A DNA stretch of 63,997 nucleotides, the filler included, from Licmophora abbreviata (Eukaryota): assembly GCA_900291995.1 (NCBI GenBank). It is 17 parts of 17 records of this genome, joined end to end, with 100 filler letters (N's around TTAATTAATTAA, not from the genome) between each part and the next. Parts side by side here need not be neighbours in the genome. Positions count along the whole stretch, not along the records: positions 59,980 to 62,894 come from OLMU01002273.1; 16 more parts are not named here. One strand, given 5' to 3'. Positions 3,596 through 62,994 of this stretch are shown here, one piece after another. The notes under the pieces were generated by a model. The model saw nothing but the letters and a program-made list of their open reading frames with translations. It was not told where the DNA came from and ran no database searches. Each line of letters opens with the position of its first letter. Positions within the stretch are counted from its first letter, which is position 1. The position numbers and the translations under genes were made by a program.

Positions 3596-4963
3596 TTACA
3601 TCAATTTGCGGCGGCGTGTCACGTGAATATCGAGATCCTTGATCTTCTTGCGCAAGGTATTGCGGTTGATCCCGAGCAGATCGGCACATTTTGCCTGATT
3701 TCCGCCCGTCGCATCCAGCGCGATCTCGATCAGCGGCGTCTCCACCTCGCGCAGGATTCGCCCATGAAGACCCGGCGGGGGCAACATATTGCCATGCAGG
3801 TCGAAATACCGCTTCAGGTGCCGCTGCACCGACGCCGCCAGCTTCTCGCCATTGCCCTGCCCCAGCACCGGCTGCGCCGCGGGCTGGTTGCCAAGGATCG
3901 CCTCCACCTCCGAGCGGCTGATCTCCTCGGCGCGCGCGGTCAGGCCGATCCGGCGCACCGCATTCTCCAGCTGTCGCACATTGCCCGGCCAGCTATAGGC
4001 GCGCATCAGCTCCTCGGCGCCCGCTGACAATTGCCGCGGCGGATTGCCCTCTCGCTCGGACCGCGCCAGGAAATGCTCCGCCAGAAGCGGGATATCCTCG
4101 ACCCTTTCGCGCAGCGACGGCACCTCGATCACCGCCCCCGACAGCCGGTAATACAGATCCTCGCGCAACAGCCCACTTTCCATCCTCTCGGACAGCCGCG
4201 CCTGGCTGGTGGCCATGAAGCGCGGCACGTGATCGCCCGGCGCATCCATCATCCGCACCACGCGCCCCTGCGCCGCCGCATCCAGATCGGCCACCTCGTC
4301 CAGGATGATCGTGCCGCCCTTGGCGCGCGCCATGATCCGCGCCGGCCCCTCCAGATCCGTGAGATCCCCCGGCGACACTGTCACGAAAGGCAGCGTGCGC
4401 CGATCCGAGAAATCATGGATCGCCCGCGCGATCAGCGATTTTCCGGTCCCCGACTCGCCCGTCACCAACACCGGCAGATCGGTGTTCATGATCCGCGCCA
4501 CCACCCGGTAAAGCGCCTGCATCGCCGCCGTGCGTCCGATCAACGGCAAGTCGTCCGGCCGGTCATCCTCGACCTTTCGCGCCGAGGCCGGCATCCTTGC
4601 CCGCGATTCCAGAGCGCGCGCCGTGCGCTTCATCAGATCGGGAAGGTCAAACGGCTTGGGCAGGTAATCATAGGCCTCGGCCTCTTCGGCCTGGATCGCC
4701 GTCATGATCGTGTTCTGCGCCGAGATCACGATCACCGGCAGGCCGGGCCGGTCCTGCGCGATCTTCGGCAGCATCTCCAGCCCGTTGCCATCCGGCATCA
4801 TCACATCCGAGATCACCACATCGCCCTTGCCCTCGCCAACCCACCGCATCAGCGTGGTCAGCGACGAGGTCGCGTGCACCTTGCAGCCTGCGCGCGTCAG
4901 CGCCTGGGTCAGAACGGTTCGGATCGTGCGGTCGTCATCCGCAACCAGTACAGTGCCATCCAT
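3596..4963 (-). CDS. ntrC: Nitrogen regulation protein NR(I) NtrC
   Basis: Receiver domain, [18 protein letters not shown], Fis-type [23 protein letters not shown]; in dusB-ntrB-ntrC operon. Confidence 0.95.
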
Positions 4964-7200: not shown

Positions 7201-8349
7201 ATGACAATCGCCGCCATCATCGTCGCCGCCGGTCGCGGCACCCGTGCGGGGGGGGACATGCCCAAACAGTGGCGCGCCCTCGCCGGACGCCGTGTGATCG
7301 ACTGGACCGTGGCCGCGTTCGAGGCCACGCCCGAGATCAGTCGCATCGTCGTCGTGCTGCATCCCGAGGATGTCGATCTCTTCGCGCCGCGCGACCGGGT
7401 CGAGGTGACGACAGGTGCCGCCTCTCGCGCCGGATCGGTCCGCAACGGTCTCGAATATCTGGACGCCACTCCCGACAAGGGACAGGTTGTGTACACAATG
7501 ATCCATGATGTGGCCCGTTGTTGTACCAAACCCGCGTATGTTTCGTACGTGTCGTACGAGCTCGAAACCCCCGGCACCCGCGCCGTGGCCCCGGCCCTGC
7601 CGGTCACCGATGCGCTTTGGGAAGGCACCGATGGCCATGTCACTGGCAACCGCGACCGGACCGGGCTTTACCGTGCGCAGACCCCGCAAGCCTTTGTCTT
7701 CAAAGATATTCTTGCCGCGCACCGCGCCTTTTCCGGCGATGCCGCCGACGATGTCGAGGTCGCCCGCGCCCATGGCATCCCCGTCCGGATCATCGACGGG
7801 GACGAGTCCAACCTCAAGATCACCCATGCCCCGGATTTCCTCCGTGCTGAAAAAATACTGCGAGATCAAATGGATATACGTATCGGTCAAGGCTATGACG
7901 TGCATCGTTTCGGCCCCGGCGACCACGTCATGCTCTGTGGCGTCGCCATTCCCCACACAAAAACCCTGCAAGGTCACTCCGACGCCGATGTCGGCATGCA
8001 CTCCCTGACCGACGCCATCTATGGCGCCTTGGCCCAAGGCGACATCGGCCGCCACTTCCCCCCGTCGGACCCTCAATGGAAGGGGGCGGAAAGCCATATC
8101 TTCCTGCGGCACGCAGTCGACTTGGCCCGTAAAAAAGGGTTCAAGATCAATAACATGGATGTCACTTTGATTTGCGAATATCCCAAGATCACGCCCCATG
8201 CCGAGGCGATGATCGCCTGCCTGTCGTCCATCACGGGCGTCGCGCAGGATCGCATTTCGGTCAAGGCCACCACCTCTGAACGGTTAGGCTTCACCGGTCG
8301 CGAGGAAGGCATCGCCGCGCAAGCTGCCGTCACATTGGTGCCCGCATGA
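7201..8349 (+). CDS. ispDF: Bifunctional IspD/IspF (MEP pathway)
   Basis: [10 protein letters not shown]...PKQW, AQTPQAF, NLKIT; then [35 protein letters not shown]. Confidence 0.95.
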
Positions 8350-59486: not shown

Positions 59487-59879
59487 TCAATCCTCGAAGA
59501 GCTCGCTTTGACCTTCGGAGGATTGCTCGTCCGCATCGCTGTCGCCCTCGCCCATTTGAGGCATGGCGCCGGGAGCGGGACGGTTTTCCAGCAAGCCGGC
59601 GGCGCGCAGTTCCTTGAGGCCCGGCAGATCGCGGGCCGATTCGAGGCCGAAATGATCGAGGAAGGACTGAGTGACCACGAAGGTCACGGGGCGACCCGGC
59701 GTCATCTTGCGGCGGCCGAAGCGGATCCACTCCATTTCAAGCAGTTGATCCACCGTGCCACGGCTGACGGAGACGCCGCGGATCTCTTCGATCTCGGCGC
59801 GGGTGACGGGCTGATGATAGGCGATGATGGCAAGGGGTCTCGACCGCGGCGCGGCTGAGTTTGCGGGTCTCAACGGTTT
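59487..59879 (-). CDS. scpB: SMC-Scp subunit ScpB (3' part, apparent 1-nt frameshift at 59834-59837)
   Basis: LAIIAYHQPVTRAEIEEIRGV, PGRP, FLDHFGL..DLP. Confidence 0.9.
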   Translation of the reverse strand, partial: KPLRPANSAAPRSRPLAIIAYHQPVTRAEIEEIRGVSVSRGTVDQLLEMEWIRFGRRKMTPGRPVTFVVTQSFLDHFGLESARDLPGLKELRAAGLLENRPAPGAMPQMGEGDSDADEQSSEGQSELFED

Positions 59880-59979
59880 NNNNNNNNNNNNNNNNNNNNN
59901 NNNNNNNNNNNNNNNNNNNNNNNTTAATTAATTAANNNNNNNNNNNNNNNNNNNNNNNNNNNNNNNNNNNNNNNNNNNN

Positions 59980-60506
59980 CAGATATAGCGCGCCGCCAAC
60001 AACGATACCGTGCCGAGCAGGGCCGCCAGCAACGCCACGACATGCCCAAGGCCAATGGACGACAGGCCCGAGGGAAAGAGGACCAAGACACCCATGCTGG
60101 CAAGAGCAAGACCGCCCCATGCCTGCGGGCGCACCGGCTCGGACAGGACAGGGCCGGACAGGATGCCGGCAAAGATCGGGATGAGCGCGATGAACAGAAA
60201 CACCTCGGCGAATGGCAAAAGCCGAAAGGCATGGAAAAACGCGACCGCCCCGGCCACCGTCGCCACCGAGCGCAGCGCCATGGCGCGCGGTGCATGCGTG
60301 CGCACGCCCCTGTCATCACGCAAGACGCGCGTGGCCAAAAGGCTCAGCCCGGCCACGATGCCGCCCGACACCGCAAAGAGTTGCGGCGCGGCATAGGAGG
60401 CGGCAAAGACCTTGGTGATCGCATCAGCGCCCGTGATCAGCAGCGTGTAGAGCACCATCAACCCCGCCCCGATGGCGGCGGGGGCGGCCAGCGGCACGCG
60501 CTTCAA
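59980..60506 (-). CDS. EamA/DMT family transporter (truncated by gap)
   Basis: DAITK, LPFAEV, PVLSEPV, multiple TMs; TTG start overlaps upstream TGA. Confidence 0.88.
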
Positions 60507-61588
60507 GACCGGTCTCCGCCAAGGCGGGCCAGACCCGTGCGGGCAAATCCGGCGAAGAAGGCATCGAACCTGTCGGTTGCCGCCTCGGCCAGAGCAAGGA
60601 CGGACCGGGCTTCGGACGAGAGTTTGTCATGGATCGCCGCTTTCATCACAAGCCAGTCCGCGCTGCGCCTGTCGCCCAGGCCATACATGCACTCGGACAA
60701 TTCCCGCAACGGGCCTTGCCCCGAAGGGACATGACGAAACGCAAGCGGGCCCTCGGGCACGGCAAGCGAAAACCCACCCTGCCCGGCCAGCGCCAGATGC
60801 CAGTTGACCATCAGAAAGGAGTGATAGTCGTCCGGCCCGGCCGCAGCGTCGACAGCGTTGATGCGGAACCGCGCCGCCTGATCGCGGATCCAACGCTCCC
60901 ATATGTCCGGTGGAGTGGCCCCGGCAAAGCGCAGCGCGATACAGATTTCGGACAAAAGATCGAGGTTCATGTCGAGGAAGGCCAGCGTTCCGGCAAAGAA
61001 CAGGCTGTCCAGGAACACCTCATCCAGCCCGGGATCGCAGCGGCCATATTCGGAGAGGTAAAAAACGATATGCGTCAGCTCATAGGCTGCTTTCTTGTTG
61101 GGCATGGCAAATGTTGCCGAACGCCGCGCAAAGCCCCGCAAACGGTCATTCAAACCAGCATCATGCGGCAGCGGATCGACTCCGCGTCGCAGGCAAAGCC
61201 GCCGAGCCTCGGCGCGCTGGAGGTCTGAAAGCTCGGCCTCGGCAAGACCCTCGGTCACGACCCAATGGACAAGCTTCTCGCCCTTTTCCCCACCGATCCC
61301 GATGTCTTCGAGATCGAGGCAGATGGACAGCAGGAAACGATAATATTGCGGAAAAAATCCAAGACGGTTTTCGATGTCTTCATAAAAGTCGCGATGAACC
61401 GCAACCGCGTCTGGCTCGGGCAGAGAGCCGGTTGTCTCGAGCACGTTGAGTAATTCGGCGTTTTCCTTCATCCAGAAAACGTCGTCTCGGTGGCGGCGCT
61501 GCGTTGCGAAGGTCGTCACAAGCGCCGCCTGTCCCGACATCTTGGCGGGTTGGCGAAACGGAACATTCAGTCGAACGATATCTCCCAT
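60503..61588 (-). CDS. Uncharacterised 361-aa protein, candidate peptide-modifying enzyme
   Basis: Long ORF with host-like codon use and AAGGGA RBS; motifs WMKENAE, FFPQYYRF, YELTHIVFY, SEI, DDYH; no signal peptide or clear TM. Confidence 0.8.
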   Translation of the reverse strand: MGDIVRLNVPFRQPAKMSGQAALVTTFATQRRHRDDVFWMKENAELLNVLETTGSLPEPDAVAVHRDFYEDIENRLGFFPQYYRFLLSICLDLEDIGIGGEKGEKLVHWVVTEGLAEAELSDLQRAEARRLCLRRGVDPLPHDAGLNDRLRGFARRSATFAMPNKKAAYELTHIVFYLSEYGRCDPGLDEVFLDSLFFAGTLAFLDMNLDLLSEICIALRFAGATPPDIWERWIRDQAARFRINAVDAAAGPDDYHSFLMVNWHLALAGQGGFSLAVPEGPLAFRHVPSGQGPLRELSECMYGLGDRRSADWLVMKAAIHDKLSSEARSVLALAEAATDRFDAFFAGFARTGLARLGGDRS

Positions 61589-61640
61589 GGGCTCTATCCC
61601 TTGTAAGGCAGGTTGATGAAGGATCCGTTTCGCCCATGGC

Positions 61641-61937
61641 TCAGATGCTCGAGGTGAACGCCTGAACCAGATCGCCAAGCGCGGCCTCGCCCGTGGTGAC
61701 GGGACCGATGGAGGAGGTGAACGCCTCGACCGCGTCGCCACGGATGGCTTCGCCGGTGGTGATCGGGCCGATGGACGACGTGAACACGTCGACCGCATCG
61801 CCGGCGAACATATTGGCACTTGTCACAGGACCGATGGACGAGGTGAATGCCTCAACGGCGGAGCCGTCATGCGGGTTGGCGACGGTTTCGTCGACATGGG
61901 CCAAGGTTTCGATTTCGAGGGTTTTCAAAGCAAGCAT
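61641..61937 (-). CDS. 98-aa repetitive peptide, candidate multicore RiPP precursor
   Basis: GGAGA RBS; 24-aa leader then four G(D/S)xVxxFTSSI(GP) units at 21-aa period, with synonymous codon variation between units. Confidence 0.85.
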   Translation of the reverse strand: MLALKTLEIETLAHVDETVANPHDGSAVEAFTSSIGPVTSANMFAGDAVDVFTSSIGPITTGEAIRGDAVEAFTSSIGPVTTGEAALGDLVQAFTSSI

Positions 61938-62019
61938 GTCATTCTCCCAGGTTAGGTTGCAGCCCCCTGACGATTGCACGTTAAAATTGTTTTTCAATTG
62001 GAAATTCTACCTACCCGAG

Positions 62020-62131
62020 TTTTCCACAGGCTGCTTTCCCGAATAGGGTGCAGCAAAATCCTGAATTTGTTCAGAAAATCCGACTGCCTAAATATTGTAT
62101 ATAAAGTTATCCACACCCCCAGATGTCGTGG
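62020..62131 (+). promoter_or_regulatory. Two DnaA-box matches and an NrdR-like box in an AT-rich divergent promoter
   Basis: TTTTCCACA 62020-28, TTATCCACA 62107-15, CCCCCAGATGTCGTGG 62116-31. Confidence 0.5.
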
Positions 62132-62263
62132 ATTTCGGAGCCATTACGGCCGAAGGCCCCCGAATCAACCTATGCTTGATTCCATGTCGCGCGTCACGGT
62201 CGGACCCTTGCCTCGGGCGGTAAGCTGCGCAATAGAGGGGACGGACAAGCGGGGGCCGACCAG

Positions 62264-62894
62264 ATGAAAATTGCCAGTTTCAACATCAACGGCATCAAGG
62301 CCCGTTCGCAGGCCCTTACCGATTGGCTGGACGAGGCGCAGCCTGATGTCGTCGTCCTGCAGGAAATCAAGTCGGTCGATGAGGGCTTCCCCCGCGAGCT
62401 TTTCGAGGATCGTGGCTACCGGGTGGAAACGCATGGCCAGAAAAGCTTCAACGGCGTGGCGATCCTGTCGCGGCTGCCGCTGGAGGATGTCACCCGCGGC
62501 TTGCCCGGCGACGATGAGGACGAACAGGCGCGCTGGATCGAAGGCACCGTAATCGGAGACAAGACCGCCGTCCGGGTCTGTGGGCTTTACCTTACCAATG
62601 GCAATCCCGTACCGGGGCCGAAATATGACTACAAGCTGGCGTGGATGGAGCGGCTCAAGGCCCGCGCCGAGGCGCTGTTGGCCGCTGAGGAACCAGCACT
62701 CATGGCGGGGGATTACAACGTGATCCCTCAGGACGAGGACGCCAAACGCCCCGAGGCTTGGCGCAAGGATGCCCTTGCCCTGCCCGAAACCCGCGCGGCG
62801 TTCCGCCGGATCGTGAATCTGGGGTTCACCGAGGCCTTCCGCACCCTCCATCAGGGGCCTGGCCATTACACGTTCTGGGATTATCAGGCCGGCG
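62264..62894 (+). CDS. xth: Exodeoxyribonuclease III (truncated)
   Basis: SFNINGI, LQEIK, NGVAILS, GDYN, YTFWDY. Confidence 0.95.
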
Positions 62895-62994
62895 NNNNNN
62901 NNNNNNNNNNNNNNNNNNNNNNNNNNNNNNNNNNNNNNTTAATTAATTAANNNNNNNNNNNNNNNNNNNNNNNNNNNNNNNNNNNNNNNNNNNN

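Follow-up and report, generated by a model that had tools for sequence, protein, structure and literature searches.

We describe a three-gene cassette in a 63,997-nt stretch of DNA (hereafter, the window) from the Licmophora abbreviata assembly GCA_900291995.1. The cassette lies on contig OLMU01002273.1 (positions 59980-62894 of the window) and begins with a small, repeat-bearing open reading frame (ORF) at 61641..61937 on the minus strand. In our judgment, this ORF is probably the multi-core substrate peptide of a cassette made up of the precursor, a DUF6902 protein and an exporter of the drug/metabolite transporter (DMT) type, which together would form an undescribed pathway of marine Rhodobacteraceae resembling those that make peptides synthesized on ribosomes and modified after translation (RiPPs). 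The precursor is a real gene, and its modules are under purifying selection.

The precursor gene runs from an ATG at 61937-61935 to a TGA stop at 61643-61641 and encodes 98 residues; it is defined by its translation, its codon table and its conserved position upstream of DUF6902, and the plus-strand frame of the same interval gives no meaningful reading. A Shine-Dalgarno-like GGGAGA (61943..61948, minus strand) lies 5 nt upstream of the ATG, and its GGG block is conserved in the upstream alignment. The peptide consists of a 24-residue leader, four 11-residue modules of the form G-[S/D]-x-V-x-x-F-T-S-S-I and three 10-residue spacers, each starting with GP. In order along the minus strand, the leader (MLALKTLEIETLAHVDETVANPHD, residues 1-24; 61866..61937) is followed by module 1 (GSAVEAFTSSI, residues 25-35; 61833..61865), module 2 (GDAVDVFTSSI, residues 46-56; 61770..61802) and module 3 (GDAVEAFTSSI, residues 67-77; 61707..61739), each of which leads into GP, and by module 4 (GDLVQAFTSSI, residues 88-98; 61644..61676), with the TGA immediately after it. 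This is the architecture that the first-pass annotation had proposed (a 24-residue leader and four units ending in FTSSI, the last directly at the stop), and we recover it on the minus strand with the sequence exactly as quoted there. The codon table likewise agrees with its statement that FTSSI is kept in 4 of 4 units and GP in 3 of 3 with synonymous codon differences: the FTSSI codons are TTC, ACC or ACG, TCG or TCC, TCC or AGC, and ATC, and any two modules have 2-4 positions at which an identical residue is written with a different codon. At the DNA level, Tandem Repeats Finder reports a period of 63 nt with 2.4 copies, 79% matches and a score of 185 at 61650-61802. The window translation contains no Cys, Trp or Tyr and its N-terminus is not hydrophobic, in keeping with the earlier remark that these residues and a signal peptide are lacking.

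Comparison with the related locus L014, whose DUF6902 protein is 82% identical, separates the parts of the precursor by how they change. The 44 module codons carry 14 synonymous changes and 1 non-synonymous change, the 30 spacer codons 6 synonymous and 4 non-synonymous, and the 24 leader codons 2 synonymous and 10 non-synonymous. Because of the 14-to-1 ratio in the modules, we conclude that selection acts on the module protein sequence in the minus-strand frame, so the first-pass claim of selection on protein and not on a DNA repeat stands. The ribosomally encoded precursor gene that defines a RiPP is thus present, in the form of a conserved ORF with a Shine-Dalgarno sequence under purifying selection.

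Protein databases hold little of this family. Neither Pfam nor NCBIfam gives a family match for the precursor (the best E-values, 0.28 and 0.022, are both far below the cut-offs), and the window peptide as a query finds no relative among 5.8 billion proteins. With a 197-residue homologue from R. nubinhibens as the query, only 2 similar proteins appear among the same 5.8 billion, both unnamed. The window's two proteins have no exact copy in a collection of 15 billion proteins, a result that is uninformative either way. Such precursor genes are almost never annotated by gene callers.

At the DNA level, homologous precursors are nevertheless regular companions of DUF6902. Within the genus Roseovarius, a repeat peptide lies directly upstream of DUF6902 at 12 of 12 loci, with FTSSI, FTSSL, FTSSM or FTTSL cores in 3-8 copies, and every one of these peptides ends at the core; the window precursor is of this Roseovarius FTSS[I/L/M] subtype. 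In a wider-family set of 80 DUF6902 loci from named genomes, the peptide is directly upstream in 78 (77 found by pattern, plus the divergent L091), and the two remaining loci are not assessable, one being cut by the contig start (L046) and the other masked (L090). This recurrence places the precursor architecture far beyond chance. The homologous precursors end 26-125 nt upstream of the DUF6902 match (342 nt in L059). Among the 73 peptides whose 5' end is complete, each precursor has between 3 and 16 motif hits, of which a few per peptide are chance matches within spacers or leaders, and the core F-[T/S]-S-[S/G]-x is retained. The first-pass annotation had suggested comparing repeat number and C-termini among homologues, and the comparison favors it.

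Its proposal that the terminal unit defines the C-terminus of the core holds for most homologues: in 73 of 77 precursors no residue follows the last core (72 judged by pattern and L086 by eye), and four (L041, L047, L059, L066) bear tails of 5-9 residues after the last core. Since these four extend past it, ending at the motif is a rule and not a requirement. The candidate cut that the first-pass annotation placed between the I of the core and the following GP would be compatible with this C-terminal rule.

Aligned over 581 modules, the consensus reads G (94%), D/E (85%), [A/G], V/T (91%), [E/Q], M/L/A (98%), F (98%), T/S (97%), S (94%), G/S (95%) and x, followed by A (56%) or a stop (12%) and then by P (72%). 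The acidic positions are not strictly kept, with D/E at 85% at position -5 and E at only 50% at -2. Among 505 gaps between successive cores, 32 are only 3 residues long, which yields 8-residue units such as VQM-FTSGL without the G-D part; this puts the smallest conserved unit at about 8 residues. These short units have only [V/T]-[E/Q/A]-[M/L] before the F and no G-D-x, which speaks against the first-pass suggestion that GDAV is a recognition sequence. In the leaders, only an N-terminal M-x-A-[L/Q]-[R/L/K]-K and a junction [S/N]-L-[H/F/L]-D-G are retained across genera. Residue 22 (61869-61871) is Pro in the window (NPHDG) and Leu in R. litoreus (NLHDG), and nearly all genera have L, M or I there; the Pro could reflect either true variation or a mistake in the assembly.

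Two variations among the modules deserve a record of their own. In an FTSSM subgroup (L015, L016, L068, L082; L001, L004, L008, L009), Cys is found only in the terminal module, which reads GDGCE[I/M]FTSSM or GDGCHMFTSSM. In the Sulfitobacter-type loci L077, L080, L083 and L087, one precursor contains two core types, FTSGS and then FTTSC or FTTSI. There is no downstream EamA gene in Sulfitobacter-type loci where this is assessable (the mixed-core ones, L076 and L086); L077 ends at a contig edge.

The gene order of the cassette on the minus strand is precursor, a 49-nt gap, DUF6902 and an EamA/DMT transporter. The DUF6902 gene (60503..61591, minus strand) encodes a 362-residue protein, presumed to be the tailoring enzyme, that matches Pfam PF21843 over the whole profile (515.5 bits, E 7.8e-155; residues 2-352 against profile positions 1-351 of 351, with a gathering score of 27 bits). 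A longer overlapping ORF would extend it to 438 residues; we rejected this extension as spurious, given that the 362-residue form already matches Pfam from residue 2 onward. The EamA/DMT-type exporter gene (59980..60506, minus strand; Pfam EamA, E 8e-08) is represented by its first ~175 codons, where the contig ends. The TTG with which it starts and the TGA stop of DUF6902 overlap by 4 nt (TTGA), and by our count 54 loci have such an overlap too. The closest named genome is that of Roseovarius litoreus DSM 28249 (97% identity in DUF6902), in which no part of the cassette is missing and EamA has 305 residues; the orthologue in L013 is full-length, with 305 residues. R. litoreus DSM 28249 and R. 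nubinhibens ISM are culturable carriers of the cassette. Of the 78 loci in the family that can be assessed, 69 have EamA directly downstream of DUF6902 (57 identified by Pfam and 12 by tblastn), L066 and L077 being left out as they end at a contig edge. In L039, a metagenome-assembled genome, a Hint-domain protein (PF13403, E 1.8e-54; 1474-2424) follows DUF6902 in place of the exporter.

The cassette also behaves as a unit of presence and absence. The exodeoxyribonuclease III gene xthA lies upstream in divergent orientation at 74 of 80 loci; at the other six, less than ~1.1 kb of sequence precedes the DUF6902 match. It is a conserved neighbor that stands outside the cassette. The Roseovarius genomes that lack DUF6902 (5 of 5) have the xthA flank joined to a segment homologous to that of L013 from ~8050 onward, just past the EamA stop at 8003; DUF6902 and EamA are both absent from the empty site, and xthA remains. 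The gap at the empty site is ~40-150 nt in 4 of the 5 genomes; in L116, ~1.1 kb of other DNA lies between. These clean empty sites lead us to treat the ~2.7-kb precursor/DUF6902/EamA block as one presence/absence unit.

We then considered what the DUF6902 protein may be. Besides PF21843, it matches PF21836 (DUF6895) with 71 bits (E 1.4e-19; residues 29-232, profile positions 18-235 of 289), above the cut-off of 23.8 bits. Every DUF6902 protein scanned (the window protein and 20 distant members) scores far higher on DUF6902 than on DUF6895, and the nearest non-DUF6902 clusters in the ESM Atlas are DUF6895, at a score of 0.88. Judging by these profile scores, the two families are related, and the window protein is not a DUF6895 member. 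The title of a paper by Shi et al. (ACS Catal 2026 16:1757), as it appears in the reference lists of PMC13352647 and PMC13453073, names a DUF6895 protein as a lasso-peptide epimerase. As far as that title goes, DUF6895 (PF21836) would be, like DUF6902, a stand-alone protein acting on ribosomal peptides.

An AlphaFold2 model of DUF6902 built from 64 sequences has a predicted local distance difference test score (pLDDT) of 94.4 and a predicted template modeling score (pTM) of 0.92. In an exhaustive VIA-align search, model residues ~13-273 match toroid proteins with Z between 12.5 and 8.2, 197-255 aligned residues and root-mean-square deviations of mostly 3.6-5.0 Å. Among the 50 fold matches listed, almost all are of the alpha/alpha-toroid or barrel type, as judged by their titles. 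They include class II terpene cyclases (Z 12.5-11), prenyltransferase beta subunits (GGTase, FTase; Z 11.9-9.8), the LanC-like domain of CuvL (8car; Z 10.1) and AGE-type sugar 2-epimerases (Z 8.2-9.8), together with C3d/TEP thioester domains and six-hairpin glycosidases. The modeled structure supports membership in the alpha/alpha-toroid (six-hairpin) fold class. The C-terminal part of the model, after the toroid region, is small and helical. A search of the PDB by sequence with DUF6902 gave no match at E < 0.4. We also considered a heme-oxygenase-like di-iron enzyme, since the UniRef name of one homologue (P0039) begins 'Iron-containi...', and rejected it: the fold matches listed are toroid-type and none is heme-oxygenase-like.

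Residues conserved in at least 90% of the 64 sequences include K42, E43, E46, R85, E120, D123, R126, E128 and R150, and also Y170, T173, H174, D211, E215, W231, D254, H257 and W264. The alignment contains no conserved Cys, which argues against a zinc site of the LanC or prenyltransferase type. AGE epimerases use a two-base mechanism, and by analogy the conserved residues of DUF6902 would fit acid/base chemistry of that sort.

DUF6902 is present in 12 of 25 sampled Roseovarius genomes, in 77 of 301 genera sampled, at one genome per genus, from the family to which Roseovarius belongs, and in 0 of 16 genomes sampled outside the family. In a set of 1.84 billion proteins it accounts for only 178 clusters at 50% identity. 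In our searches it was met only in Alphaproteobacteria; the listed DUF6895 clusters are mostly from Actinomycetota. A search for distant loci with an alignment of a 7-sequence DUF6902 subset recovered Caulobacterales proteins, from Hellea, Robiginitomaculum and Algimonas among others, that are 35-51% identical to the query alignment. At 14 of 14 Caulobacterales loci (L093-L106), an 83-105-residue ORF ends 17-77 nt upstream of DUF6902 (at about 3700-4000 in the locus). The ORF is conserved and has a signal-peptide-like N-terminus and no tandem repeat. In the two Caulobacterales loci examined for neighbors, a ~540-residue protein without a Pfam match lies upstream and EamA is not downstream. By eye, the C-terminal parts of these small proteins resemble one Rhodobacterales module; we rejected homology as lacking support, since a hidden Markov model of 394 distinct modules gave a best score of 0.0 for the real proteins versus 8.1 for shuffled ones. 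What the Caulobacterales and Rhodobacterales loci appear to have in common, judged by gene order, is only a small ORF paired with DUF6902.

The pathway we favor would proceed as follows. DUF6902 would bind and modify each 8-11-residue module, [G-D/E-x]-[V/T]-[E/Q]-[M/L/A]-F-[T/S]-S-[S/G]-x, in a reaction that is probably ATP-free and that, by homology to DUF6895, would most likely be C-alpha epimerization within the F-T-S-S core. Peptidases whose genes lie elsewhere would then strip off the unconserved leader and spacers, and the modified core would survive; given a cassette without a protease gene and spacers free to drift, general peptidases probably carry out the release. A short modified peptide of ~5-8 residues ending at I would leave the cell through the DMT transporter. 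A conserved core, a drifting leader and a single chromosomal site favor one conserved product (a signal, cofactor or metabolite) over a variable antibiotic.

Several points weigh against this pathway. Modification, cleavage, export and product are all read from genes and a predicted structure. The epimerization link depends on a paper title, together with a match between related but distinct Pfam families. Foldseek finds nothing in the PDB at E <= 0.001, and the toroid match is at the level of the fold, where Z below 13 on helical proteins is moderate evidence because a general arrangement of helices can match. The C-terminal ~94 residues of DUF6902, folded alone (pLDDT 80.9), give a best Z of 4.6, with no recognizable fold and no RiPP recognition element (RRE) detected. 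There is no protease in the cassette, the exporter is absent from 9 of the 78 assessable loci, and DMT carriers are not, to our knowledge, the usual exporters of RiPPs. Finally, the small Caulobacterales proteins paired with DUF6902 are not repeat peptides.

Much of the same evidence can be read differently. The peptide might be a disposable scaffold, with DUF6902 (perhaps together with unlinked enzymes) converting one or two residues of each F-T-S-S-x core into an amino-acid-sized molecule, which is then cut out and exported in the manner of pyrroloquinoline quinone from PqqA or mycofactocin from MftA, the many cores serving to raise the yield. EamA/DMT carriers typically move amino acids and small metabolites, and the exporter has weak NCBIfam matches to amino-acid exporters; moreover, a conserved core with a drifting leader is the reverse of what most antibiotic RiPPs display, the cassette occupies a single chromosomal site, next to xthA at 74 of 80 loci, and 73 of 77 peptides stop at the core. 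We nonetheless consider a scaffold unlikely, as the cassette includes no oxidase, radical-SAM or other cofactor-using enzyme and the conserved stretch of 8-11 residues is more than a one-residue product needs. An uncleaved peptide would account more directly for a cassette without a protease: it would be disordered and carry several docking motifs that bind or regulate DUF6902 or are presented by it, acting as a multivalent ligand, adaptor or regulator. Alpha/alpha-toroids also occur in binding proteins (C3d/TEP and cobalamin carriers), and the non-repeat partner of DUF6902 in Caulobacterales, with its signal-peptide-like N-terminus, could be understood in the same way. Yet the near-invariant polar residues of DUF6902 (H174, H257, D211, E215, Y170 and several Arg) resemble an active site, a translationally coupled small-molecule exporter would have no role, and a copy number that ranges over 3-16 inside a single genus-level group suits yield better than it suits a fixed scaffold; this explanation seems to us still less probable than the previous one.

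A more skeptical view is that there is no gene here, only a 63-nt DNA tandem repeat that happens to be open in a GC-rich genome. Gene callers almost never annotate the homologues and the region is full of overlapping spurious ORFs, as such a view would predict. Against it stand the 14 synonymous changes versus 1 non-synonymous change in the modules, repeats that differ at synonymous sites within the gene, the conserved Shine-Dalgarno sequence and upstream blocks, and an amino-acid motif retained across genera whose DNA has diverged. We give this view almost no credence, and keep to a modified multi-core precursor as the probable explanation.

The 326-nt region upstream of the precursor contains the only perfect TTATCCACA (TGTGGATAA in the precursor direction) of the window, at 62107..62115 on the plus strand, starting 178 nt upstream of the ATG. 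This 9-mer equals what we take to be the consensus DnaA box. A second box, TTTTCCACA, with one mismatch, is found at 62020..62028 (plus strand), 87 nt from the first and at a place that another perfect box occupies in many genera. Of the 58 loci with full flanks, 40 have one or more matches to T[T/G]ATCCACA, in either orientation, in the 1.1 kb upstream of DUF6902. For the 55 leaders listed, the distance between box and ATG is mostly ~171-195 nt (a few near 220) and/or ~96-119 nt, and many genera have both boxes, ~76 nt apart. The box is absent from 10 xthA loci in 5 genomes without the cassette. We infer from these motifs that DnaA may bind at the two upstream boxes. Rfam detects no RNA family on the contig, and a simple scan of the contig finds no sigma-70-like promoter and terminator-like sites no commoner than in shuffles.

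Combining these observations with the favored pathway gives a more specific scenario, which we offer tentatively and regard as doubtful in its entirety. A quarter of the Rhodobacteraceae genera would make one very short, conserved peptide, bearing a D-residue or otherwise modified without a cofactor, through a pathway with exceptionally few parts: one toroid enzyme would mark the cores of the multi-copy precursor, ordinary peptidases would digest the rest and make a dedicated protease superfluous, and a small-molecule DMT carrier would export the product, with expression tied to DnaA through the two conserved DnaA-box-like sites. For marine roseobacters the peptide would be a signal or public good linked to the cell cycle or growth, and not an antibiotic.

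The window consists of short contigs joined by 16 N44-TTAATTAATTAA-N44 linkers (8826-62994; e.g., 59880-59979 and 62895-62994), with the cassette contig at 59980-62894, and because separate contigs are joined, gene order across linkers is not real. An ScpB-like ORF at 59487-59873, across a linker, is hence not a true neighbor of the cassette. On the cassette contig itself, the divergent xthA gene (62264..62894, plus strand; TIGR00195, E 7.5e-55) is cut by the contig end. The Pfam-matched genes within 5 kb on either side of the R. litoreus cassette are of housekeeping types: DUF2927, an AAA ATPase, DksA and an FAD monooxygenase share one side with xthA, and the opposite side has an HD phosphohydrolase and a Kef-type antiporter. 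Pfam detects no protease, ATP-grasp, radical-SAM, lasso or lanthipeptide family in these ±5 kb.

We compared the cassette with known systems. Multi-core RiPP precursors include those of graspetides such as plesiocin, of cyanobactins and of fungal repeat peptides, and the likeness to them lies in a leader, several short cores, spacers and a copy number that varies between relatives. Unlike those systems, the cassette and the R. litoreus flanks (±5 kb) have no ATP-grasp ligase, PatA/PatG-type protease or Kex2-type signal; for graspetides in particular, ATP-grasp is absent from the cassette and its flanks, and the module shows only partial conservation at its acidic positions. Compared with the DUF6895 lasso system, as far as it can be judged from its title, the cassette has neither a lasso cyclase nor a leader peptidase, and the substrate is a linear multi-core repeat and not a lasso. 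Neither an Asn-synthetase-like cyclase nor a B-type peptidase/RRE is found in the cassette or within 5 kb of it in R. litoreus.

LanC-type cyclases and prenyltransferases act on short peptide motifs, the latter on a C-terminal tetrapeptide. The model suggests that DUF6902 has its toroid fold class in common with LanC cyclases and prenyltransferase beta subunits, but it differs from them in having no Cys/His zinc site, a window peptide without Cys and no sequence similarity to solved structures. Nor does the cassette resemble a lanthipeptide locus, as the window peptide lacks Cys and no LanB, LanM, LanKC or LanL dehydratase is encoded in the cassette or the R. litoreus flanks. Pyrroloquinoline quinone is made from PqqA and mycofactocin from MftA, both single-core peptides processed by radical-SAM enzymes with RRE chaperones. 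With these pathways the cassette shares a small ribosomal peptide with a conserved C-terminal core beside an enzyme, at a conserved chromosomal locus; it differs in that no radical-SAM enzyme, RRE chaperone or single-core peptide is present. In a literature search that had supplements and subscription journals outside its scope, no paper names DUF6902, and among the matches listed for the motif and topic none is relevant by title or abstract, the FTSS* matches being to unrelated words.

The Roseovarius FTSS[I/L/M] subtype, the empty sites, the 8-residue minimal unit, the counts and positions of upstream boxes and the non-repeat variant in Caulobacterales add to what is known of this cassette. 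Standard genome mining misses the family because its precursor genes are almost never annotated. The system is small (three genes, ~2.7 kb), and Roseobacter-group bacteria are abundant marine organisms that interact with algae. If the pathway proposed here is correct, it would constitute a new RiPP-type class in which a single alpha/alpha-toroid tailoring enzyme is combined with a multi-core, conserved-core precursor and a DMT exporter; it would also provide a first function for DUF6902 and extend DUF6895-type peptide chemistry beyond lasso peptides.

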